Below are positions 94 to 55,300 of a stretch of DNA of 64,000 nucleotides, in pieces. Origin of the DNA: an uncultured Clostridia bacterium (lineage in GTDB: Bacteria > Bacillota > Clostridia > Christensenellales > UBA1242); contig CAKVHV010000002.1 in assembly GCA_934754475.1 (NCBI GenBank), forward strand, positions 951-64,950. The letters run 5' to 3'. The translations under genes and the position numbers were made by a program. The notes beneath the pieces were generated by a model. That model saw only the letters and a program-made list of their open reading frames with translations. It was not told where the DNA came from and did not search any database. How positions within the stretch are numbered: the first letter of the stretch is position 1; each line of letters starts with the position of its first letter.

Positions 94-2172
94 TTAGTTA
101 TTCTTATATATTTTAACAAGTAATTCTTGACTAAAATTATTCCAATTGCTATCATCAGAAACATAAATTTTTATAAATAAATTATAATAATCTTCTGTGC
201 TTTCAACGGTTGTTAAGTCAGTTTCTAAAACAAACTTTTGATAACTTGAATTTTTACCTGCAATTGGTTCAAAACGTCCAGTAATATTGCTTGTAATTTC
301 GATAGGATCACTACCGCCATTATAGAAATTATAAGTTCCTTCTCCCCTTGCTTCCCAAATAAAATGGACGTCTTTATAATAATCATATTCTCCAAATTTT
401 AATTCAACAGTTTTATTATCTGTATTGAATTTAATTGTTTGATCGCCAGTGTTTGCAAGATAACAATATTGTTTACTTATGTCTCCTTTTAAAATCTTCC
501 AACCATATTCAATATATCCTTCATTTTCGATTGTTTTATCGTGTTTTGTGATTGTTATATTACTATTATCATGAGTTAAATTTTTATCGTTATAATATAA
601 ATTAGGATTAATATAACATCTTATAGAATAACGACCAGCAGCTGAAGAACAAACATAAAGGTATTTATGTTCATCTTGTTCAAATTTAGCATCAGTATAA
701 ATACAATAAGATTTATTCGCTTCAAATGCTGTTTTCAAGTGTTGAGCAAGTTCTGTTTGCGTTACGTCATAAGGAATCAATGCATAATCTGGTGCATTAA
801 GTTGAAATTTCATTTCTTGAGGATTACCATTGTTATCGGTTGAATACTTAAAGCCGGATAACTCGTTTATAACATCTAATGTAGGTGCTGAATATGCAGT
901 TCTGCGAAGTATAATTGTAATTTCAAATTCTTGAGATTCAGCATAAAATTTTTCATAATAATTTTCATATTCTTTAGGCACAAATTTAACCATAGTTGTT
1001 ATTGTGTTTGTTTCCCCTTTAGTGCTATCAAAGTTATATGTTTTAGGATTGACTTCCGCAAGGGTGCCATAAATAGCAATTCTATTGTCAGCTTCATTCC
1101 AGGACTTTTCAAAATTATGCCATATCAATTCTTCACTTGTTAATTTGTTATCATTTGCTGAATTGTTATTTTCGTCATTAAGGTCAGAACTTAAAAGTAA
1201 TGATAGTTTACCATTTATTTTTGAATTACCGAAAGATGTATAACTATAACTATCACCATCTGATATGCCACGTAACATTTCATCAAGAGTGACACCTCTA
1301 CAAAGATATTTGTCAAAGGTGAAATCAATCTTAAAATTCTCTGCAGTTGCAACGATTTGTGATTTTTTTACAACAAGAGTTTGATAAGCAGAATATGATT
1401 TAAGGTAATTTCCTTGTTCTTTTATTTCAGCAAAAATCAAATATTTGCCTGGTTTAATATTTTCTAAAATTGATAATTCATTTGATAATTCACCAACTTG
1501 ATAATTTTCAGAATCAACAATTTCGTTTGGTTTTGGCAAAGCGTCAATTTCTTCTTGTGTTAGTGAAGAAATGTCATAAGCATAGTATGTTGAATCCTCT
1601 AAAATACAAATTTTCTCAATCATACTATCATCTAATTGAGTAGTGCCATTAGAAACGCTATAGTCGATACCTTTAAACTTTGTTCCATAGTAAATTTGAT
1701 TTTTACCAATATTTCCCACTCTACTTGTAACATTTAAAGTGTAGTTGCTATTATCGTTTACTTTTCGAACATCGATATTAACTTCACATGAATTGTCTTT
1801 ATAATTTAAAGTTAATCTCCAAAAGCCAGCTGTAAGATTTGAATTCTCACACATTTGAGTGTATTCTTCAAAAGTTTTAGTAACTCTACTTTCCTCGGCA
1901 CCATCAGCCGTAAAACTTACGGTTATTTGAACATTAGTCAATTCAACATTTTCATTAGAATTGTCTGAATAATATGCTTTTATTTTTATATTGTTAAGTC
2001 CAGTAGTATTACCAAAATCTCTGGTCTCGTAAATTGATGCTGAATATTCACCATCAGCCAAAGATACTTGAATGTAATTTAACTTTTTATCATTTCCACA
2101 GGCACTTAACAAAAATATGCAAGGAATAATTAAGCAAAAAGCAAAAATAAAACTCAATAATTTCTTTTTCAA
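94..2172 (-). CDS. Putative surface lipoprotein, function unknown (692 aa)
   Basis: 2079-nt ORF with a TTG start shortly after an AAGGAGGA RBS. Signal peptide plus lipobox (..IFLLSAC|GND). N/Y/T-rich sequence with no catalytic motif recognised. Confidence 0.7.
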   Translation of the reverse strand: MKKKLLSFIFAFCLIIPCIFLLSACGNDKKLNYIQVSLADGEYSASIYETRDFGNTTGLNNIKIKAYYSDNSNENVELTNVQITVSFTADGAEESRVTKTFEEYTQMCENSNLTAGFWRLTLNYKDNSCEVNIDVRKVNDNSNYTLNVTSRVGNIGKNQIYYGTKFKGIDYSVSNGTTQLDDSMIEKICILEDSTYYAYDISSLTQEEIDALPKPNEIVDSENYQVGELSNELSILENIKPGKYLIFAEIKEQGNYLKSYSAYQTLVVKKSQIVATAENFKIDFTFDKYLCRGVTLDEMLRGISDGDSYSYTSFGNSKINGKLSLLLSSDLNDENNNSANDNKLTSEELIWHNFEKSWNEADNRIAIYGTLAEVNPKTYNFDSTKGETNTITTMVKFVPKEYENYYEKFYAESQEFEITIILRRTAYSAPTLDVINELSGFKYSTDNNGNPQEMKFQLNAPDYALIPYDVTQTELAQHLKTAFEANKSYCIYTDAKFEQDEHKYLYVCSSAAGRYSIRCYINPNLYYNDKNLTHDNSNITITKHDKTIENEGYIEYGWKILKGDISKQYCYLANTGDQTIKFNTDNKTVELKFGEYDYYKDVHFIWEARGEGTYNFYNGGSDPIEITSNITGRFEPIAGKNSSYQKFVLETDLTTVESTEDYYNLFIKIYVSDDSNWNNFSQELLVKIYKNN

Positions 2173-27908: not shown

Positions 27909-30900
27909 ATGTCAAACACTAAAAATTACAAAATAAAAAGTATAATTTGTAGCATGTTATTATGCTTTGCTATGATAATCTCTGCATTTGTCGGAATTAA
28001 TTTTAAGGCAAATGATGTTGTTATGGCTGATGACGGCTCAAATTATAGAGTAGTAAATGTCTCTAGCGATTTGCTTAGCAGTTATTACAACTTTAATACA
28101 ACTTCATCCACAAGGTCTGCTCCTGCAACTCCAAATGGTTGGTCAGTAATTACTGGGGTTGGAAATCAAGTTAACAAAGATAATATTCTAAATGGTATTG
28201 TTGATTTAACTGATGACACAACTTTTTCAACTTCGACTTTCAAGACTTCAAGACCAAAGAACATTTTGGAAAATATAACTTCGGATACCGCTTATTACAA
28301 AAACCTTATGATTAATTCTCATAATGGCGCTGGTAGACTTGGTTACAAGAGCAATTCAATGAACTTGGAAGCAAATAGTTATTACTCTATTTCGGTTAGA
28401 CTATATACAAATCGTACCGAAAAAACAGATAACTACGACGAAACTGATGCATATGCTTCAATTTATCTAAGTGGACTTGAAACAGAAGACTCTCAAGAAA
28501 ACCAAGTTAAGTTCGAAAATATCAACACTTTGGAATCTTGGGTTGACTACACTTTCTACATCGACACTTTTGATAGTGCAAGTGTAAATCTTGAACTTTG
28601 GTTAGGAAGCAAGACAAGTAATGTTCAAGGTGCAGTATTCTTTAATAACGTAACAATCTATAGATATAGCGAAGATTATTACAAAGAATATATTCTAACA
28701 AAATCAGATACCGAAGAAGACAATCACAATATTCTATCTTTTTCTAAATCGTACACCGAACCAGTAACAAATAGTAGTTTTGAAACAACTACTCCACTTG
28801 GCTGGACTAACATTGCAAAAAGCACAACCGATGCCGAAACTCAAAAATGTCAAATTGTTGACGTTAACAATTACACTCTAAAAGATGATGATACTACAGT
28901 TTCTGCACCACGTTCTAACAACTCTGCAAATAATAACCATGCTTTGTTTATGTACAACAAAGAAGAAGGCTATCAAGCAGTAGAGAGTTCAAAATTTACA
29001 ATCGAACAATTAACATACTACAAAGTATCATTCTTTGCTAAATCTAATTGTGGAACTGGCACTGGTGCGACTGTATATTTGGTTGACAAATCAGAAAACG
29101 ATGCAATTGATAGTGCCAAATTAACTTTGGCTACAACTTTTACAAAAAATTCTAACGTTTATCGCAACGACTGGACACAATATAGTTTTTATGTTTATGG
29201 CGACGAACTAGCAGATAAGGAAGTTGCTTTACAAATTTGGTTGGGTACAAACTCAAGCAAAACCAAAGGTTATGTATTTGTAGACGACTTTAGAATGGAA
29301 AAAGTTTCTTATCAAACTTTCTCAAACAATTCTAGTTCTTCAAATTCAACTTCACTTAATTTCAATAACGAAAGTGCAAGTTTTGTAGTTATTAACTCAA
29401 ACTTCAACAAAACTCAAAACGAAGACTACAATACCACTTACCCACTAGCACCAAGCAACTGGGCAAAATCTGGAGATACTAATAGTAACACATTTAGTGG
29501 CGTAATCAAGGCTAATGCCGAACATTTTGATGCTAACAAATCTAGTTATACAAATACTTCAATTGTTCCATCAAGACCAGCAAATCACCCTATTTATGGC
29601 GATAATAACAACGTTTTGATGATTGGAAGCACAAACGAAAACAATACTCAATCTTATGAAAGTGATAGCATGACACTTAGTTCAAATAGTTATTACAAAC
29701 TAAGTTTCTATGTATTCACCGATTATTTCAAGAGCAACCTTAATAACAATGGTGCAAGAGTTACCCTTAAGAATAGTTCAAGAGTATTATTTGATTATCA
29801 AAATATCTGTTTTACTGACAATGGTTGGCACTTATTTGAAACATATATCAAAACTGGAAACAACTCCGAAAATGCTAATTTGTTCCTAGCATTTGAAAAA
29901 ACAACTGGTTATGTATATTTTGACGATATTAAGTTGGAAACAACTAAGGAAGCAATTTATAATAACTTTACAAAACAACCAAATGTGATTTACTCAAAAG
30001 TTGATTTGAGTTTTGAAAACTTTGATAACAAGACATTCAATACAAATACAAAAATTCAAACTCCAAACAACTGGGATGGTGCTGGACAAGATTCAGATAC
30101 CCCAACCGAAAGCGGAATAATTAGCATGGATAACGATAGTCTTGCACTTATTCCACCTACTCTATCTGGCAACAAAAATGTGCTTATGATTAATAGTTTG
30201 CATAATGTAAATTATGCCTATACTAGCAAAGAAAGTTTCAACTTTGCATCAAAAACATATTACAAAATCACTGTTAATGTTCTTACAAACAACCTTGTAG
30301 CCGAGAATACCGAAGATAGCGAAGGCTATGGCGCAAGCATCATTTTGAATGGTTCAAAAGATATTATTGTCAAAGGCATTAATACAAATGGTGTATGGAA
30401 GACATTTACAATTTATCTAAGTAGCGAAGATGCTATTAATAGCACAATTTCACTAGGACTTGGCGCTACCAACCAAAAGATTAGCGGAATGGTTTTGTTT
30501 GATAATCTCAAAATCGAAACCACTGACCAAGATACTTTCCTTGAAGATTTGAAAACAACTGATGACGACTACACCAAGTGTTTCATCAACTACACCGAAC
30601 AGACCGAAACCAACGAAGAAGAATCAACTTGGTCAAATGAATTTAACTGGCTAATTCTTCCAAGTTTAATTACTGCACTTGCAATTATTATTGCTGTACT
30701 TGGATTCTATGTAAGAAAGATTAACTTTAGTAAAAAGCCAAAAATCAAAACAAAATACGATAGAAGAAAGACTCTTGACAAAGACATCGACAAACGTGAA
30801 AGAATTGTTCTTAGACAACAGATTATTGATGAATTGAATGCCGAACTCAAATCAATAGATGACGAAATCGAAGAGTACAATAGATTATCCGCTCAAAAAC

Positions 30901-31451
30901 TCGAAGAAATGAAAGCTCAAATCTTGGAAGAAAAACAAGTTATTGAACGTCAAAAACTAGAAATCGAGATTAAGAAGAAAGAAGCAACTGCCGAACGTGA
31001 AAAACAACTAAAAGCAAATCCAGAACTTGTAAGCAATGTTAAGGCAGAAAAAGAATTTGAAAAATTACTCTCTCATCTTGACAAACAAGAAATGAGTTTG
31101 CAAAAACAAATTAATCAAAAAGATGTCAAACTTGAATCTACAAAAGAAGCAGATAAATCTAAACTTTCAAAATTCTTAGAAAGAAAAGAATTTATCAAGA
31201 ACGAAATTGCTAAGATTGAAGCCGAAATCGAAGAGATTGCCAAAGAAGAAGCTGAAATGTGGGAAGAATACAAGAAAGCTAAGATGGAAGCAAAACAAAG
31301 AAAAGCCGAAATCAAAGCTGAAAAAGCATGTCAGCCCCCTGCAAAATCTACAAAAAAGAAATCAATTACCAAACCAGCGGATTCAAAAACAACTCAAGAT
31401 GAAGCAAAAGTTAGTCAAGAACAAAATAGTTCTAACGACAAAAACAACTAA
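27909..31451 (+). CDS. Large type I membrane protein: four CBM-like jelly-roll modules outside, one TM helix, ~250-aa coiled-coil tail inside
   Basis: Signal/anchor at aa 10-35. Four ~180-200-aa modules share NxLMIN, YYK(I/L/V)S, W..F..Y and G.V.F(D/N)(D/N) motifs. TM helix WLILPSLITALAIIIAVLGFYV. K/E-rich heptad-like tail. Confidence 0.7.
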   Translation: MSNTKNYKIKSIICSMLLCFAMIISAFVGINFKANDVVMADDGSNYRVVNVSSDLLSSYYNFNTTSSTRSAPATPNGWSVITGVGNQVNKDNILNGIVDLTDDTTFSTSTFKTSRPKNILENITSDTAYYKNLMINSHNGAGRLGYKSNSMNLEANSYYSISVRLYTNRTEKTDNYDETDAYASIYLSGLETEDSQENQVKFENINTLESWVDYTFYIDTFDSASVNLELWLGSKTSNVQGAVFFNNVTIYRYSEDYYKEYILTKSDTEEDNHNILSFSKSYTEPVTNSSFETTTPLGWTNIAKSTTDAETQKCQIVDVNNYTLKDDDTTVSAPRSNNSANNNHALFMYNKEEGYQAVESSKFTIEQLTYYKVSFFAKSNCGTGTGATVYLVDKSENDAIDSAKLTLATTFTKNSNVYRNDWTQYSFYVYGDELADKEVALQIWLGTNSSKTKGYVFVDDFRMEKVSYQTFSNNSSSSNSTSLNFNNESASFVVINSNFNKTQNEDYNTTYPLAPSNWAKSGDTNSNTFSGVIKANAEHFDANKSSYTNTSIVPSRPANHPIYGDNNNVLMIGSTNENNTQSYESDSMTLSSNSYYKLSFYVFTDYFKSNLNNNGARVTLKNSSRVLFDYQNICFTDNGWHLFETYIKTGNNSENANLFLAFEKTTGYVYFDDIKLETTKEAIYNNFTKQPNVIYSKVDLSFENFDNKTFNTNTKIQTPNNWDGAGQDSDTPTESGIISMDNDSLALIPPTLSGNKNVLMINSLHNVNYAYTSKESFNFASKTYYKITVNVLTNNLVAENTEDSEGYGASIILNGSKDIIVKGINTNGVWKTFTIYLSSEDAINSTISLGLGATNQKISGMVLFDNLKIETTDQDTFLEDLKTTDDDYTKCFINYTEQTETNEEESTWSNEFNWLILPSLITALAIIIAVLGFYVRKINFSKKPKIKTKYDRRKTLDKDIDKRERIVLRQQIIDELNAELKSIDDEIEEYNRLSAQKLEEMKAQILEEKQVIERQKLEIEIKKKEATAEREKQLKANPELVSNVKAEKEFEKLLSHLDKQEMSLQKQINQKDVKLESTKEADKSKLSKFLERKEFIKNEIAKIEAEIEEIAKEEAEMWEEYKKAKMEAKQRKAEIKAEKACQPPAKSTKKKSITKPADSKTTQDEAKVSQEQNSSNDKNN

Positions 31452-41880: not shown

Positions 41881-41957
41881 GGGGGTATAGCTCAGTTGGC
41901 TAGAGCACCTGCCTTGCAAGCAGGGGGTCAAGAGTTCGAGTCTCTTTATCTCCACCA
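41881..41957 (+). tRNA. tRNA-Ala(UGC)
   Basis: G3.U70 pair, anticodon loop CTTGCAA, encoded CCA. Confidence 0.9.
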
Positions 41958-41962
41958 TATAT

Positions 41963-42039
41963 AGAGATGTAGCTCAGCAGGTTAGAGCACCACCCTGATA
42001 AGGTGGGGGTCGGTGGTTCGAGTCCACTCATCTCTACCA
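41963..42039 (+). tRNA. tRNA-Ile(GAU)
   Basis: Acceptor AGAGATG/CATCTCT, anticodon arm CCACC-CTGATAA-GGTGG, encoded CCA. Confidence 0.9.
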
Positions 42040-47717: not shown

Positions 47718-47746
47718 TTGACTAAAATCCAACTAACAAATATAAT
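47718..47746 (+). promoter_or_regulatory. Sigma-A type promoter of the PFOR gene
   Basis: TTGACT, 17-nt spacer, TATAAT. Confidence 0.6.
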
Positions 47747-47783
47747 AGTTTTAGTTGATTATTCAATTTTAAGGAGAGAAAAA

Positions 47784-50700
47784 GTGAAAAAAATTACAAT
47801 TGACGGAAATACCGCTGCGGCAACTATTGCTTATGCACTAAGTGAAGTTGCTACAATCTACCCTATTACACCTAGTTCAACTATGGCAGAACTTTGTGAC
47901 CAATGGTCAGCCGAAGGAAGAACAAACATTTTCGGACACAAAGTCAAAGTTGTCGAAATGCAATCCGAAGGTGGCGCATCTGGTGCTTTGCACGGAAGTC
48001 TATGTTCGGGTGCTTTGACTACTACTTTTACAGCAAGTCAAGGCTTACTACTTATGATTCCAAATATGTACAAGATTGCCGGAGAACTTACACCTTGTGT
48101 TATGCACGTTAGTGCTAGAGCGCTTGCAACCCACGCATTATCTATATTTGGCGACCACTCAGACGTTATGAGTGTTAGACAAACTGGTTGGGCAATGCTA
48201 TGTGCTTCTGGAGTACAAGAAGCTATGGATATGGCACTTGTTGCACATTTGTCTACTCTCAAAAGCAGTGTACCATTTGTTCATTTCTTTGACGGATTTA
48301 GAACAAGCCATGAGATTAACACAATTGAAGATATAGATATTGATAGTATCAAACATTTAGTTCCTTATGACAAAATCAAGGAATTTAAGGCTAGAAGTCT
48401 TAATGCTAACAACCCACATCAACAAGGAACTGCTCAAAATCCAGATATTTACTTCCAAAATAGAGAAACTGCAAATGCCTACTACGACAAAACCCCTGCA
48501 ATTGTTCAAGAATATATGGACGAAGTTGGAAAGATTACTGGCAGACATTATCATCTATTTGATTACTATGGCGATGCTAATGCTGAGAATATTATAGTTA
48601 TCATGGGAAGTGGTGCTAATACAACCGAAGAAACTGTTAAGTATCTTAATTCAAAACAAGGAAAGAAAGTTGGCGTTGTTGTAGTTAGACTATATAGACC
48701 TTTTGATACAAAAGCCTTTGTAGACGCTCTTCCAAAGTCTGCCAAAAATATTGCAGTTTTGGACAGAACCAAAGAACCTGGTAGCAATGGCGAACCTTTG
48801 TACAAAGACGTTGTTTGTGCACTTGCTGAACACAACTTTAAGGCTAATGTTTATGGCGGAAGATACGGACTAGGAAGCAAAGAGTTTACTCCTACAATGG
48901 TTAATGCTGTATATGAAAATTTGGAAAGCTCAACTCCAAAGAACCACTTTACAGTTGGCATAAACGACGATTTAACTCATACTAGCCTTCCACTCATTAA
49001 CAAAATATTCCCTAGTGACGAAAGTGTAACCGCTTGCAAATTCTATGGATTTGGCGGAGACGGAACTGTTAGTGCTAACAAGAGTAGTATCAAAATAATC
49101 GGCAACAATACAGATTTAAATGGTCAAGCATATTTTGAGTACGATAGCAAAAAGAGTGGTAGCGCAACAATAAGCCACCTAAGATTTGGCAAAAACAAGA
49201 TTAACGAAAGTTATTTGCTAGACAATATCGACTTTGTTGCTGTACACAAGGAAGCATATGTAACCAAATACAACCTACTAAACAATATCAAAGATAACGG
49301 AACATTGCTTCTTAACACCGGTTGGACTTTGGACGAATTAGACAAAGTTCTTCCAAATAGAATGAAAAAAGAAATCGCTTCAAAACACATTAATTTCTAT
49401 ACAATAGATGCGGACAAGATTGCTGGAGAAATCGGACTTGGAAACAAGATAAATCTTGTTATGCAATCAGCATTCTTCAAGTTAATTAATATTATCCCAA
49501 TCGAAACCGCTGTATCTGAGATGAAAAAATATGCCGAAAAGAGTTATGGAAGCAAAGGTCAAGCAGTTTTGGATATGAACTTCAAAGCCATAGATAGTGG
49601 TGTTAATAATATCTCCAAAATTGACTACCCTGCATCTTGGGCAGATTTGAATGAAGTAGAAGCAGTTATAGACAACAATTCCGAACAGGAATACTACGAA
49701 AAGATTATCAAACCTATTTCTCGCCTTGAAGGCAATGACTTGCCAGTTAGTGCTTTTGACCCACGTGGAATAGTTCCAACAAATACTGCTAGATTTGAAA
49801 AACGTGGAGTTGCGACTCAACTTCCTTGTTGGCAAAGCGACAAATGTATTCAATGTAATATGTGTGCGTTTGTATGTCCACACGCTGCAATTAGACCACA
49901 TCTTGTTAAACCTGAAAATCTAAACAATGCACCAGATTCCTTCAAGTCTGCAAATGCTATGGCAGAAAAAGATTTGAAATTTGTAATGCAAGTTAGTTCC
50001 AAAGATTGTACTGGTTGTGGAGTTTGTGCTAGTGTTTGCCCTGCTAAGGAAAAAGCAATTTTGATGCAAGATGCAACCAATATCATGGAAGAACAAAACA
50101 AAAATTATGAGTTTGTAAATTCTATTCCAAACGAAAAAAGCGGAGTATTCAAGCCAAACACTGTCAAAGGTAGCCAATACAACATGCCATACTTTGAGTT
50201 CTCAGGTGCTTGTGCTGGATGTGGCGAAACCCCATATCTTAAGGTTATTAGCCAAATGTTTGGAGACAGAATGGTTATTGCTAATGCGACTGGCTGTTCT
50301 AGTATTTATGGCGGTTCATCACCTACTTGTCCGTTTGTAAAAGACAAAAATGGTCATGGAATTGCATGGGCAAATAGTTTGTTTGAAGACAATGCCGAAT
50401 TCGGATATGGAATCAAAATCGGTCACCAAATTCAACAAGACAATTTACGTGCTAATCTAAATAAAATCTATGATACCGAACTAGATAGCGAACTTAACGA
50501 CTTAATCGAAGAATATTCAGGCTCAGACGAAACAAATCGTCAAAGAGAACTAGCCGAACTTATTACAAACAAACTATCATCACTCCAAGTTCCAGACGAA
50601 CTAAAATGTATAAAAGAATCAATTCTTTCAAACAAAAACAACTTTGCAAATGAATCAATTTGGATTGTTGGTGGTGATGGCTGGGCTTATGATATTGGTT

Positions 50701-51302
50701 ACGGCGGTCTTGACCATGTTTTGGCTAGTGGCGAAAATGTTAATATTTTGGTATTGGATACCGAAGTTTACTCAAATACTGGCGGTCAAGCAAGCAAATC
50801 TACCCCAATGGGTGCAATTGCTAAGTTTGCAAGCAACGGAAAACGTACTAACAAAAAAGACCTTGGAATGATTGCCACACAATACAAAAATGTATATGTT
50901 GCCAAAGTTGCAATGGGTGCTGATATGAATCAATTCCTAAAGGCAATTAACGAAGCAGAAAGTTACAACGGGGTTTCAATTATTATCGCATATGCACCAT
51001 GTATCAACCATGGAATCAAAATGGAAAATAGCCAACTCGAAGAAAAGAAAGCAGTTGAAAGCGGATACTGGCATTTATATAGATACAATCCAATGCTTAA
51101 AGAACAAGGCAAAAATCCATTTATCCTAGATAGCAAAGAGCCTACTCTTGATTACGAAGACTTCCTAAAAGGCGAAACTAGATACAAATCCCTACTTGCT
51201 AAGGACGAAGAACTAGCAAACGAACTATTTGAAGAAGCAAAACAAAATGCAATAGATACTTACAATCACTACAAAATGCTTGCTGAAAAATGCGATTATT
51301 AA
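47784..51302 (+). CDS. nifJ: Pyruvate:ferredoxin (flavodoxin) oxidoreductase
   Basis: About 1170 aa, single-chain PFOR layout. Two ferredoxin-type CxxCxxCxxxCP motifs mid-protein and the TPP motif GGDGWAYDIGYGGLDH. GTG 47784 lies 7 nt after AAGGAG. Confidence 0.95.
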   Translation: MKKITIDGNTAAATIAYALSEVATIYPITPSSTMAELCDQWSAEGRTNIFGHKVKVVEMQSEGGASGALHGSLCSGALTTTFTASQGLLLMIPNMYKIAGELTPCVMHVSARALATHALSIFGDHSDVMSVRQTGWAMLCASGVQEAMDMALVAHLSTLKSSVPFVHFFDGFRTSHEINTIEDIDIDSIKHLVPYDKIKEFKARSLNANNPHQQGTAQNPDIYFQNRETANAYYDKTPAIVQEYMDEVGKITGRHYHLFDYYGDANAENIIVIMGSGANTTEETVKYLNSKQGKKVGVVVVRLYRPFDTKAFVDALPKSAKNIAVLDRTKEPGSNGEPLYKDVVCALAEHNFKANVYGGRYGLGSKEFTPTMVNAVYENLESSTPKNHFTVGINDDLTHTSLPLINKIFPSDESVTACKFYGFGGDGTVSANKSSIKIIGNNTDLNGQAYFEYDSKKSGSATISHLRFGKNKINESYLLDNIDFVAVHKEAYVTKYNLLNNIKDNGTLLLNTGWTLDELDKVLPNRMKKEIASKHINFYTIDADKIAGEIGLGNKINLVMQSAFFKLINIIPIETAVSEMKKYAEKSYGSKGQAVLDMNFKAIDSGVNNISKIDYPASWADLNEVEAVIDNNSEQEYYEKIIKPISRLEGNDLPVSAFDPRGIVPTNTARFEKRGVATQLPCWQSDKCIQCNMCAFVCPHAAIRPHLVKPENLNNAPDSFKSANAMAEKDLKFVMQVSSKDCTGCGVCASVCPAKEKAILMQDATNIMEEQNKNYEFVNSIPNEKSGVFKPNTVKGSQYNMPYFEFSGACAGCGETPYLKVISQMFGDRMVIANATGCSSIYGGSSPTCPFVKDKNGHGIAWANSLFEDNAEFGYGIKIGHQIQQDNLRANLNKIYDTELDSELNDLIEEYSGSDETNRQRELAELITNKLSSLQVPDELKCIKESILSNKNNFANESIWIVGGDGWAYDIGYGGLDHVLASGENVNILVLDTEVYSNTGGQASKSTPMGAIAKFASNGKRTNKKDLGMIATQYKNVYVAKVAMGADMNQFLKAINEAESYNGVSIIIAYAPCINHGIKMENSQLEEKKAVESGYWHLYRYNPMLKEQGKNPFILDSKEPTLDYEDFLKGETRYKSLLAKDEELANELFEEAKQNAIDTYNHYKMLAEKCDY

Positions 51303-51419
51303 TTAATTCTTAAGTCAATTTTAACTACTAAAAATTGTATTTTGAAAAAATTAAATTCGAACTAGAACAAATTTAATTTCACCAACACAATTTGTAATTT
51401 TGAATAGTACACAAAAAAA

Positions 51420-51450
51420 TACAGATATTAACTAAATATCTGTATTTTTT
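51420..51450. terminator. Bidirectional terminator between convergent genes
   Basis: tacagatatt-aacta-aatatctgta stem flanked by A7 and T6. Confidence 0.7.
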
Positions 51451-51469
51451 GTTGTTTGCATAGTACTTG

Positions 51470-52801
51470 TTAGATTTCCTTGCCGGATTCTTTATCTTCT
51501 CTAGCTTTAGCATTATTTATTGTTCGTTGATAATTATCTATAAAGTATTCATTAAACTTTCTAATTTTGTCGTCACTTAAACTTTTAGCACAAGTTTCCG
51601 GATGAGATTTGTCGCCTATCAAATCAGTTTTGAACTTGCCAGAATTCCAAATATAGTCATAAATTATGTGTGCTTCTCTACTTAATTCTCGAGAACTTCT
51701 ACGAACAATTTGTCCATCCACATTCTTTGAATCCATACCAAGCCATTCTTTATCTTTTTTAACACTAGAATGTAAAGAATAAGCAATAGTTTTTCCACTT
51801 GGGTCTTGTATATTATAGTACCCAGCATCGTTTATTTTACCCTTGCCTTCTGCAATAGCCTTTTGCACTTCGTTTTTGCAATACTCATCATACCAATCAT
51901 AAGCATCTTTGATAAGTTTAAGAGTTGTCAAATTGGTTGTATCTACAAATTCTACAGTTTTGGTTTCCTTTGGTGGAGTTGTTTGTGTATTCTGTGAAGT
52001 TTGAGAAAAATTAAATGAGTATGTTTTTCCTTCAACCTTTCTTTCTGGCTCTGATTGAAACTTGGTTGCCGACTGACTAGTTGATGAATTAGTAGCAGTT
52101 CTCCCATTTACTTCACTTTCTATCTTCGACAAGTCTACACCCATTCTTTTCCACATGTCAGAATTATTATCTGGATATACATCAATATTTTTATCAATCC
52201 AATGCGGTGGTTCATTTTCATACAATTTAATTATATTTTTATAATCATCTTTAGTAGTCTTAATATCAAGCGAATTAAATAATTCATAAATATTCCTTAT
52301 ATTGGCAACATGCATAATTGTCTCGTGACTATTTTTCATAAAATTCATATCTTGCTTTTTATCGTACATTTTACTAGCAATTCCAATTGCCTTTTGAAAA
52401 GAAACATATAATCTAGCAAGTGATTCATTTTTTATTTGGTGTCCATTTTTTATTCCCGCTTCAACAAATTGAATCATTGTTCTAAAATCAATATCTTTAT
52501 ATTCACCTTTGCGTTTTAGTCTTTCTGAGAAATCTTCGGGAGTAACTTTAATATTATCTTTGGAATTTAGTCTATCAATCAAATTAGATATTGCGTTGTC
52601 CAAAATGATATCAAACTGAAGTTCCATATCAGCCTTTTTAATTTTCGCATCTTTAATAAATTGCTTTCTTTCTTCTTCTACTCTCTCTTCGTACTTTCGT
52701 CTATTTATTGTTCTCTCCAAAAATCCATTTGGTTTTGGTTTTATAAAAACCGGGGTTGCAGTATACCCATTAATATAATTTAATATTTCTTCTTTTGTCA
52801 T
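51470..52801 (-). CDS. Hypothetical two-domain protein (443 aa) with S/T/Q-rich linker
   Basis: ATG 52801 lies 6 nt after AAGGA. No signal peptide and no recognised family. Confidence 0.6.
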   Translation of the reverse strand: MTKEEILNYINGYTATPVFIKPKPNGFLERTINRRKYEERVEEERKQFIKDAKIKKADMELQFDIILDNAISNLIDRLNSKDNIKVTPEDFSERLKRKGEYKDIDFRTMIQFVEAGIKNGHQIKNESLARLYVSFQKAIGIASKMYDKKQDMNFMKNSHETIMHVANIRNIYELFNSLDIKTTKDDYKNIIKLYENEPPHWIDKNIDVYPDNNSDMWKRMGVDLSKIESEVNGRTATNSSTSQSATKFQSEPERKVEGKTYSFNFSQTSQNTQTTPPKETKTVEFVDTTNLTTLKLIKDAYDWYDEYCKNEVQKAIAEGKGKINDAGYYNIQDPSGKTIAYSLHSSVKKDKEWLGMDSKNVDGQIVRRSSRELSREAHIIYDYIWNSGKFKTDLIGDKSHPETCAKSLSDDKIRKFNEYFIDNYQRTINNAKAREDKESGKEI

Positions 52802-52857
52802 ATGCTATTCCTTAAAATTTATTTGCATTTTGTCAGTTTTTCCATTCTATTAACCTT

Positions 52858-52888
52858 AGTATACCCCCCCCCCAAGGAATTTTGTCAA
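52858..52888 (-). promoter_or_regulatory. Near-consensus promoter with a G10 tract in a 19-nt spacer
   Basis: The minus strand reads TTGACA-aaattcctt-GGGGGGGGGG-TATACT. The -10 box ends 56 nt upstream of ATG 52801. Confidence 0.6.
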
Positions 52889-53302
52889 CTAAAAATGGCA
52901 TAATATGCCTTATTTTTTAATTTTAATAACAAAAAAACACCGATTATTAAAGCACACTAAATAATATAGAGTAAAACTTAAATAATTGGTGTTTTGCTGG
53001 GTCAAAAGTTACTGCAAAAGTACAATTTGTCAGTCACTGCCCAAAAGTATAATGTTGACATATAAAGTTATATGTTCATTACATTAGTAGAATATCTAAA
53101 AATTAATTTTTTATTCAATTTTCAAAAATTTTTTTGTTAAACCTTACAAAAATGATTTCAAAATTATACTAAACTTTCAAAAACATTTCAAATTCAGTAT
53201 GCCAAAACATATTAATTATTTTAAACAAAAAAAGGAGTGATTAACAACCATACTCAAGATTAATCACTTTCCTTATATTTAATATTTGTAATAATTCAAA
53301 AA

Positions 53303-55300
53303 TTATACAATAGATAATATTTTATCTCTATTTTTTTTGATAACAGCAATCATTTCCTTAGACATTTCGTCCGCTGTCAAGCCAAATCTTTCGTAGAGTT
53401 CACTTGGCTTTGCACTTCCGCCAAAATCGTCTACACCAAAGCATTTTCCAAACTTTCCAACATATTTATACCAATTAGAAGTTGCACCCGCTTCAATTGA
53501 AAATATGGATTTCATGTTTGGTGGAACAATAGAATTCTTATATTTCTCAGATTGTTTATCAAATAAATTAGTACAAGGCATTGATACAACTCTAACATTA
53601 TATCCTTTGCACTTAAGCATTTCTTTGCACTCCAAAGCAAGTGTTACTTCGCTACCAGTTGCAATAATTACCGCATTAAGTTCACCCCTATCTTCCTTAG
53701 ACAAGATATATCCGCCAAATCTAACATCCTTAATATCACATTCAAATTCTCTCAAAGGTTGTCTTGAAAGCACGATATTACTTGGAAGATTGGAATTAAG
53801 TGCAATTTCGAAACTTGCCTTAGTTTCAGTCAAATTTGCTGGACGGAATGTATACATATTTGGAATATCTCTAAGGGCATTTAGTTGTTCGCAAGGCTCG
53901 TGTGTCGCACCATCTTCGCCGACTGCTATACTATCGTGTGTAAACACAGAAATACATTTAAGCCCCATAAGCGCTCTTAGTCTAAGCGATGCTTTCATAT
54001 AATCACTAAAGGACATAAAAGTACTATCTACAGGCACTAACCCGCCATACAACGCAATTCCATTAGAAATACATCCCATAGCAAATTCTCTGATGCCAAA
54101 CTTAATATTTCTATTTGCGAAATTATCGTTTACAAAGCCACTATCGTTATATTTAACTTTTGTACTCGAACTCAAATCTGCCGAACCACAAATAATATTT
54201 GGATATGCCTTGCAAAGTTCTTGCAAAACAAGATTTCCTAAGTCTCTACCCGAAGTATCTTTGAGTACACTTACATCATTCAAAAACGTTTCTGTATTTT
54301 CAAATTTTTTGGATATAAATTGTTGCAAAAGTTTGTAGTCACCAGGATATGCTCTTGAATAAGATTTTATACGGTCTTTTAAGGTCTTTTTGAAAGTATC
54401 AAATCTTTTTCTTAAGAATACAAAGTCTCTTTGAACATCTTTGTCTAACTCAAATGGATTTGTATTTACGCCCAATTTTTCTCTTAATAATTTAACGTTC
54501 TCTACACCTAACAAACTTCCATGAGATTTGTTGCTATCTTGCAAAGCACTTCCAAAGCCAATATGAGTACGAATTTGAATAAAACTAGGTTTATCCTTGC
54601 TTTTTTTGGCTAAATTAATTGCTTCGACAATTTGTTTGACATCATTTCCATCAGCAACATCAATAGTATTAAACCCAAGGCTTTGCATATAAGACAAAGT
54701 ATTTTGATTCATAACACCATTTATATCACTATCTAATGTTACCTTGTTGCAATCATACAAAACAATTAATTTATTAAGTCCAAGCGAACCCGCCAAACTC
54801 AATGCTTCATACGAAACACCTTCCATAAGACAGCCTTCGCCCACAAGAGCAAATGTATAGTTATCAAATAGAGTAATATCCGCTTTGTTGAATTTACTTG
54901 CCATAATCCTTTGGGCAATCGCAAGACCAACTGCACTGGCAACACCCTGTCCCAAAGGCCCAGTAGTTGCATCCACACCGGGAACAATGCCATATTCAGG
55001 ATGACCGGGAGTTATACTTCCGTTTTTTCTAAATCTCTTTAGGTCATCCATTGAAATATTATAACCAAAGGCATGAAGTGTTGCATATAGTATGCTACTT
55101 CCATGGCCAGCAGACATAACAAATCTATCTCTAAAGATATTTTTGTCGTCATCTGGTGTTACATTCAAAACCTTTGAATATAGCCCATAAAGAATTGGTG
55201 CCGAACCCAAAGCAATCCCCGGATGCCCACTACCAGCATTTTCTATCATGTCGACTGCTAAAATTCTTAAATTATTAATATTTTTGTTATCCATTTCCAT
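53303..55300 (-). CDS. tkt: Transketolase
   Basis: GSGHPG, GEGCLMEG and THDSIAVGEDGATHEP motifs. 665 aa. Confidence 0.95.
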   Translation of the reverse strand: MEMDNKNINNLRILAVDMIENAGSGHPGIALGSAPILYGLYSKVLNVTPDDDKNIFRDRFVMSAGHGSSILYATLHAFGYNISMDDLKRFRKNGSITPGHPEYGIVPGVDATTGPLGQGVASAVGLAIAQRIMASKFNKADITLFDNYTFALVGEGCLMEGVSYEALSLAGSLGLNKLIVLYDCNKVTLDSDINGVMNQNTLSYMQSLGFNTIDVADGNDVKQIVEAINLAKKSKDKPSFIQIRTHIGFGSALQDSNKSHGSLLGVENVKLLREKLGVNTNPFELDKDVQRDFVFLRKRFDTFKKTLKDRIKSYSRAYPGDYKLLQQFISKKFENTETFLNDVSVLKDTSGRDLGNLVLQELCKAYPNIICGSADLSSSTKVKYNDSGFVNDNFANRNIKFGIREFAMGCISNGIALYGGLVPVDSTFMSFSDYMKASLRLRALMGLKCISVFTHDSIAVGEDGATHEPCEQLNALRDIPNMYTFRPANLTETKASFEIALNSNLPSNIVLSRQPLREFECDIKDVRFGGYILSKEDRGELNAVIIATGSEVTLALECKEMLKCKGYNVRVVSMPCTNLFDKQSEKYKNSIVPPNMKSIFSIEAGATSNWYKYVGKFGKCFGVDDFGGSAKPSELYERFGLTADEMSKEMIAVIKKNRDKILSIV

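Follow-up and report, generated by a model that had tools for sequence, protein, structure and literature searches.

Can the length of a guanine run lying between the two boxes of a promoter set the expression of a gene in an uncultured gut Clostridia bacterium? The question is raised by a 64,000-nt stretch of contig CAKVHV010000002.1 (assembly GCA_934754475.1; the whole stretch is hereafter called the window), in which the minus strand at 52888-52858 reads TTGACA-AAATTCCTT-G10-TATACT, with a spacer of 19 nt, upstream of a gene encoding a 443-aa orphan protein. Phase variation by simple sequence repeats (SSRs) is a textbook strategy of pathogens with small genomes, among them Neisseria, Haemophilus, Campylobacter, Treponema and Mycoplasma, and attention in the gut microbiota has so far gone to invertible promoters and methylation switches. 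We consider it probable that the G tract is a slippage-prone SSR in the spacer of a σA-type promoter, tuning an accessory gene in the manner of porA, tp0126 and vlp. The mechanism is a known one in an unusual host, and the anatomy and length polymorphism of the locus, which match those of a classical promoter-spacer SSR switch, support this reading in part.

The elements of the locus are collected in Table 1. A first-pass annotation of the window had placed the G10 run in the spacer of a near-consensus promoter, and the coordinates, the spacer length, the 56-nt gap from the −10 box to the start codon at 52801 and the AAGGA ribosome-binding site (RBS) were all confirmed. By sequence alone, the repeat lies between a −35 and a −10 box, and at ten residues it exceeds the length of about 8 or more at which a G/C tract is regarded as slippable. 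The annotation had also singled out the run as the only long one of its kind. It is the sole G/C homopolymer of at least 7 nt in the window (31.2% GC), the runner-up being a C6, and a G9 run arose in 0/100 dinucleotide-preserving shuffles of the same sequence. For TTGACA-N16-20-TATACT the expectation is 0.06 occurrences per window, and 6/100 shuffles contained one. We infer that these boxes are a promoter in use, with transcription starting at about 52851.

A generic promoter scan, whose scope is spacers of 16-18 nt, places no further promoter in the stretch from the upstream terminators to the ATG; the TTGACA-19-TATACT arrangement is absent from its list because of the same spacer limit. No convincing match to the consensus sequences for the sporulation sigma factors E, K, F and G was seen in a by-eye comparison made with no formal test, and comparison of the intergenic region with Rfam gave no match above noise. 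The 5′ untranslated region (UTR) has only 3 variable positions across all loci and shows no significant secondary structure on folding (z score 0.23). The open reading frame (ORF) of the 443-aa protein cannot reach into the tract, because an in-frame TAG stands 6 nt upstream of its ATG; an intragenic frameshift switch of the Campylobacter jejuni type was rejected on this ground. The only ORFs that overlap the tract are mechanical ones of 22 aa, on the minus strand, and 33 aa.

RNA polymerase holoenzyme carrying σ70 or σA binds best to promoters with a spacer of 17 ± 1 bp. Under the proposed mechanism, slipped-strand mispairing during replication would add or remove G residues, each of which would change how far the −35 box lies from the −10 box by 1 bp and turn one box relative to the other by about 34 degrees. 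Tract length would in this way set the level of transcription, heritably yet reversibly. Promoter strength is predicted to peak at G8 (17 bp), to remain good at G9 (18 bp) and to be weak at G10 (19 bp), with the promoter essentially silent from G11 upwards. Cells of one clonal population would always be mixed for expression of the 443-aa gene, as expected of a contingency locus or 'volume-control' switch. On this reading, tract length would determine expression, switching would run at a high rate inside populations, and it would be adaptive.

If the tract is a switch, its length should differ among close relatives, as the annotation had anticipated, while the promoter elements stay constant. 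We fetched 16 contigs encoding the protein and counted the tract in 12 tract-spanning sequences, the window included. All 16 contigs have the same order of transketolase gene, 443-aa gene and pyruvate:ferredoxin oxidoreductase (PFOR) gene at a DNA identity of 91-100%, and are therefore taken to represent one species-level population. TTGACA, the AAATTCCTT segment and TATACT are unchanged in 12/12 tract-spanning sequences, while the tract itself occurs as G9 (n = 1, L008), G10 (n = 8; the window, L001, L002, L003, L009, L010, L014 and L015), G11 (n = 2, L012 and L018) and G13 (n = 1, L006), giving spacers of 18, 19, 20 and 22 nt. An invariant tract, which the annotation had named as evidence against a switch, is thus not what is seen across strains.

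The distribution of these lengths among strains points to a tract that changes readily and is inherited. The G9 sequence (L008) and two of the G10 sequences (L009 and L010) show 0 differences over the 1,344-nt coding sequence (CDS), so the tract appears to mutate faster than point substitutions accumulate. The two G11 sequences come from unrelated runs (SRR8316680 and SRR29133874) and are mutually closest, which argues that the length alleles are heritable and not random read error. The G13 allele was found on a 41x SPAdes contig, and a Logan contig with the same protein allele (L007) also opens with 13 G; the latter is not independent, since it probably derives from the same sample. The CDS tree calls for no fewer than three independent changes in length (10 to 9, 10 to 11 and 10 to 13). 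In the same alignment the G tract has 4 length classes, compared with 1-3 for control A/T runs of 6-8 nt, and the two-class A/T runs compared by eye mostly track phylogeny. Pattern scans for further alleles gave no match, either with a protein pattern in GTDB genomes and Joint Genome Institute (JGI) metagenomes or with the DNA pattern TTGACAAAATTCCTT-N5-20-TATACTAAGG in JGI metagenomes.

Assembly breaks bear on variation within samples. Five Logan contigs (L004, L007, L011, L012 and L013) have an end inside the tract or at it: L011 and L013 start with exactly G10, L007 with G13, L012 with TG11 and L004 with TATACT. The breaks of L011, L013 and L007 are those that a branch in the k-mer graph would leave if a longer allele coexisted in the sample. 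No branch is expected for L004 and L012, whose breaks are more likely to come from a drop in read quality at the homopolymer. Taken together, the breaks are suggestive of length heterogeneity within samples. The annotation had cautioned that an artefact of sequencing or assembly would weaken its claim; the tract was recovered in independent assemblies made with different assemblers (k141 and NODE contigs from the European Nucleotide Archive, and Logan contigs) and is not an assembly artefact. A poly-G artefact of two-colour Illumina chemistry was considered and excluded, since the tract is bounded by unique sequence on both sides in the 12 tract-spanning sequences, from 3 assemblers.

The gene downstream of the tract bears the marks of a functional one. 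All distinct alleles are intact (11/11). They fall into two groups, of 443 aa and 447 aa, and inside each group the ratio of nonsynonymous to synonymous substitution rates (dN/dS) is 0.11-0.24; the protein is therefore under purifying selection, which implies that it is made. Between the groups, alignment codons 151-200 (about 52200-52350) form a hyper-divergent segment (dS 0.59, dN 0.43), whereas the other 50-codon windows have a dS of roughly 0-0.17 and a dN of 0.01-0.10 and the remaining gene is nearly identical. This mosaic pattern points to diversifying selection, or to recombination in which a divergent allele took part. Two cluster members are longer, at 476 aa (P0008 and P0014), and in the one inspected (P0008; L012 75-1505) the S/T/Q-rich linker carries a tandem duplication of a 29-aa unit, SEPERKVEGKT[F/Y]SFNFSQ..QNTQTTP. 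The unit corresponds to codons ~250-278 of the window's gene (about 51968-52054), and its duplication is a second repeat polymorphism at the locus, this one in the coding region.

The gene also comes and goes with its promoter. In the metagenome-assembled genome (MAG) UBA11490, the interval between the transketolase and PFOR genes lacks the gene and holds 28 unrelated bases (L017 7393-7420) instead of 1,464 bp, between flanks common to both genomes (...AATCGGTGTTTTTT on the left, AGTACTATGCAAACAAC... on the right). Because UBA11490 has 28 bp in place of the whole hairpin-promoter-UTR-ORF segment, the gene and its own promoter form a self-contained accessory cassette that is present or absent between strains. 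No direct repeats or recognisable mobile-element ends were seen at the cassette junctions, which were inspected by eye only, with no repeat search run. Judged from these comparisons, the regulated gene is functional and combines several features of a contingency locus, namely a hyper-divergent segment, a 29-aa duplication and presence or absence of the cassette.

The polymorphism could also be explained by noise in sequencing or assembly, with a true tract fixed at G10 and the G9, G11 and G13 alleles and the contig breaks all produced by short-read homopolymer errors. The data are all short-read metagenome assemblies, G9 and G11 lie one base off the mode, and L004 and L012 break with no graph branch expected, as coverage or quality loss at the tract would have it. 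We nevertheless regard noise as improbable, given that two sister strains from unrelated runs have G11 in common, that G13 stands on a 41x contig (the 13 G of L007, probably from the same sample, add no independent support) and that G10 is identical in 8 sequences from three assemblers; consensus calling at the tract is therefore generally stable. Somewhat less improbable, though still unlikely, is a tract that is hypermutable and non-regulatory, drifting in length beside boxes that are unused or in a promoter crippled at 19 nt, with the cassette poorly expressed or decaying. Several observations weigh against a switch, fit such drift, or do both. The G8 allele with its 17-nt optimum, which the annotation had called ideal, is found in 0 assemblies. 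G10 is the majority length in both allele groups, deep lineages ~8% apart in nucleotide sequence, so that the tract could be kept at G10 for some other reason or the switch could be mostly low; the consensus sequences do not bear out a plain ON/OFF switch centred on G8. Other nearby non-coding A/T homopolymers vary too, though less than the G tract, and the gene is dispensable, being missing from UBA11490. Illumina errors or quality loss at runs of G10-13 can break contigs as well (as is likelier at L004 and L012, where no branch is expected), and the protein has neither a signal peptide nor a membrane segment, where most classical phase-variable genes encode surface structures. Drift in turn sits poorly with an ORF that is intact in every allele and under purifying selection within groups, from which it follows that the gene must be expressed. 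It would also leave unexplained why substitutions are found in the adjoining UTR and upstream sequence but nowhere in the hexamers and the non-G part of the spacer, why no alternative promoter lies 3′ of two upstream terminators (within the 16-18 nt scan), and why a 10-nt G run, strongly disfavoured at 31% GC unless maintained, is there at all.

A role at the level of RNA or peptide has very little probability in our estimation. The tract might act as a frameshift switch in a 22-aa micro-ORF (52901-52833, MPFLVDKIPWGGGILRLIEWKN), which spans it and whose frame G10 and G13 both keep; the G9 and G11 alleles break that frame, however, the Shine-Dalgarno sequence is weak and the ATG lies inside a hairpin. 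It might otherwise belong to an anti-RBS element in read-through transcripts. ATTCCTT (52874-52880), the heptamer just 5′ of the tract, is fully complementary to AAGGAAT (52807-52813) in the RBS region on the minus strand, and the minimum free energy fold pairs AUUCCUUGGGG with UUUUAAGGAAU, but the fold is no better than that of shuffled sequence (z −0.23). Both versions are further opposed by the two terminators between the upstream promoter and the tract region, and a start after TATACT would leave the micro-ORF and the anti-RBS sequence out of the mRNA. A tract that tunes the promoter through its spacer remains the reading that we favour.

Loci in which a homopolymer is linked to expression are known from several bacteria. 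The vlp promoters of Mycoplasma hyorhinis reportedly carry a poly-A tract in the spacer; like the locus described here they place a homopolymer between the −35 and −10 boxes, and in this low-GC relative of the Firmicutes the homopolymer works as an ON/OFF switch, but the tract is poly-A and the products are surface lipoproteins of a multigene family. In C. jejuni, long G/C runs are rare in the AT-rich genome, hypermutable, and mark phase-variable genes. Those tracts are mostly intragenic and act by translational frameshift, whereas the tract here lies outside the ORF. The closest match in anatomy is with porA of N. meningitidis and tp0126 of T. pallidum, in which a poly-G tract lies between −35 and −10 with best expression at 17-nt spacing (summarised in PMC7864442). 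The arrangement of a G run between σ70-type hexamers is identical, and the lengths lie in the same range, at 9-13 here and about 8-11 in porA and tp0126, where length varies among and within strains (summarised in PMC7864442). The differences are that porA and tp0126 belong to Gram-negative or spirochaete pathogens and encode outer-membrane proteins, whereas the present locus belongs to uncultured gut spore-forming Clostridia and encodes a soluble orphan protein; and that length-dependent expression was measured for those genes, whereas here it is predicted.

In the tprE/G/J/L loci of T. pallidum, most promoters have 9-10 G, lengths that are non-permissive, and the permissive lengths are 8 G or fewer (8 G for the tprL tract; PMC7864442). 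The present locus resembles tprE/G/J/L in that its mode is G10 and its predicted optimum G8, and tprL offers a precedent for a G10 mode with no G8 observed; the same pattern is also expected if the tract is kept near G10 for a different reason. No clear −35 and −10 boxes enclose the tract in tprE/G/J/L, where it sits directly upstream of the transcription start site. Among Firmicutes, the closest analogue that we found is the R28 locus of S. pyogenes M28, where a poly-T tract (9, 10 or 11 T) in the Spy1336/R28-Spy1337 intergenic region gives three graded transcript states and the R28 coding region varies in tandem-repeat number (PMC7098570). Both loci join an upstream homopolymer to a coding-repeat polymorphism. 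The R28 tract differs in being poly-T, in lying between divergent genes, in probably acting through regulator-binding geometry and in serving an LPXTG surface protein. A limited full-text literature search turned up no account of promoter switching by a homopolymer in Clostridia, which is not proof of novelty.

Table 1. Features of the 443-aa gene cassette and its surroundings (window coordinates).
Feature	Position	Strand	Remarks
Accessory cassette, 1,464 bp	51468..52931	minus	Hairpin, promoter with G tract, UTR and ORF through stop
Hairpin GGCAT-ATT-ATGCC, A6 and T5 flanks	52892..52918 (stem-loop 52909-52897)	minus	Just 5′ of the −35 box
−35 hexamer TTGACA	52888-52883	minus	6/6 consensus; unchanged in the 10 tract-spanning sequences of the multiple alignment
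Non-repeat part of spacer, AAATTCCTT, 9 nt	52882-52874	minus	No change in aligned sequences reaching it
G10 homopolymer (C10 on the plus strand)	52873-52864	minus	Putative hypermutable element
−10 hexamer TATACT	52863-52858	minus	5/6 consensus, A2 and T6 present; unchanged in every locus reaching it
Predicted 5′ UTR, ~50 nt	52802..52857	minus	RBS AAGGA at 52813-52809
CDS, 443-aa orphan protein	51470..52801	minus	S/T/Q-rich linker ~aa 233-292; conserved C-terminal alpha/beta domain aa 291-443
Hairpin with A-run/T-run flanks, AAAAAATACAGATATTTAGTTAATATCTGTATTTTTTT	51413..51450		By-eye reading, absent from terminator scan list

The hairpin just upstream of the promoter had been proposed in the annotation to insulate it. 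A hairpin with an A-run and a T-run does exist, is conserved across all loci and looks terminator-like on both strands in the scan; it is weak and thermodynamically unremarkable (−5.9 kcal/mol, z −1.15), and the insulating role is unsupported. The hairpin at the other end of the gene, read by eye, is a putative bidirectional terminator that would serve both the 443-aa gene and the PFOR gene convergent with it; UBA11490 has this hairpin too, as it is not part of the cassette but of the conserved surroundings. We also observed a candidate small RNA gene on the minus strand (52932-53191), in the stretch that separates the cassette from the transketolase terminator. It has a promoter, TTGAAA-17-TATAAT, at 53191-53163 with 11/12 matches, followed by a stretch of ~236 nt that folds well (z −3.56) and, at ~52999-52932, a long hairpin with a T-run as its 3′ end (−18.9 kcal/mol, z −5.0). 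The region is highly conserved in all loci, including cassette-less UBA11490, and has no Rfam match (best E 0.34).

The annotation had described the protein as having no signal peptide, an S/T/Q-rich linker and no recognisable family, and hydropathy and database searches bear this description out. No hydrophobic segment is present (maximum 19-residue Kyte-Doolittle value 0.65), and the protein therefore has no signal peptide and no membrane anchor. It is also rare: three clusters at 90% identity, with 17 member sequences, were found among 5.8 billion proteins, and an exhaustive HMMER search of 1.84 billion representatives added two remote relatives only (P0018 and P0019, E ~1e-15). These two have in common an N-terminal PxPNG...KYEERV motif and a C-terminal AYxWYD...GYY...D..G domain. 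For P0019 (453 aa, 22% alignment identity; L016 4420-4490, GCA_965354885.1) the setting is different: its gene follows a NUDIX gene, and in the place of the poly-G promoter it has an ordinary one, TTGAAA-17-TAAAAT, that contains no homopolymer. Because P0019 has such a promoter there, the family is normally driven by a σA promoter immediately upstream, and because that promoter lacks a homopolymer, the poly-G spacer is a trait of this lineage's cassette and not of the family. The small family occurs in other Clostridia-like MAGs with no switch.

Searches for function and origin were negative. Pfam gave nothing significant (best CdiA_C_tRNase, E 0.15, below cut-off), NCBIfam, PHROGs and PADLOC gave no match, and the best sequence match in a profile search of the PDB had an E of 0.24. 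The full-length AlphaFold model is unusable (predicted local distance difference test, pLDDT, 42.8). A model of the C-terminal domain is acceptable (pLDDT 74.5, predicted template modelling score 0.71) and consists of one long helix, four short strands and another two long helices; when it was compared by Foldseek with the PDB and BFVD, no match reached an E below 0.27. Nothing points to a phage or plasmid origin, since neither tblastn against collections of phages and plasmids nor a scan of IMG/VR turned up relatives.

The cassette stands between a transketolase gene (53303-55300, minus strand) and the convergent PFOR gene (47718-51302, plus strand). The spore-forming Firmicute context assumed in the annotation is supported by SpoIVA, encoded in the window (E 1e-196), together with a weaker SpoVB match that is below cut-off, and by the nearest genome, 'MAG: Clostridiales bacterium UBA11490', whose transketolase is 98% identical. 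UBA11490 is in use as a genus name for primate gut bacteria (PMC12080069). Elsewhere in the window, two long ORFs, 27909-31451 (plus strand; 1,180 aa) and 94-2172 (minus strand; 692 aa), have no NCBIfam match, and the 1,180-aa ORF has a sub-threshold Pfam match only (CBM_4_9_1, E 0.003). A tRNA-Ala(UGC)/tRNA-Ile(GAU) pair, a combination typical of 16S-23S spacers, lies at 41881-42039 on the plus strand, with no rRNA match in the window.

As to what the locus may mean for its host, we propose with a little less than even confidence that it is a genuine contingency locus in commensal, spore-forming gut Clostridia (GTDB genus UBA11490), a self-contained 1.46-kb cassette that joins a poly-G promoter to a lineage-restricted soluble protein of new fold. 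The hypervariable segment and the variation in repeat number suggest a function in an arms race, through interaction with phages or competitors, or a component of the spore surface. The mechanism itself is not new, and the comparative evidence backs the candidate. If the reading is correct, SSR promoter phase variation, documented mainly in host-adapted pathogens and Mollicutes, would reach uncultured anaerobic gut Firmicutes, and public metagenome assemblies could be searched for such switches by way of tract polymorphism and contig breaks, without cultivation. The orphan, strain-variable protein family would then be a candidate target of fluctuating selection.

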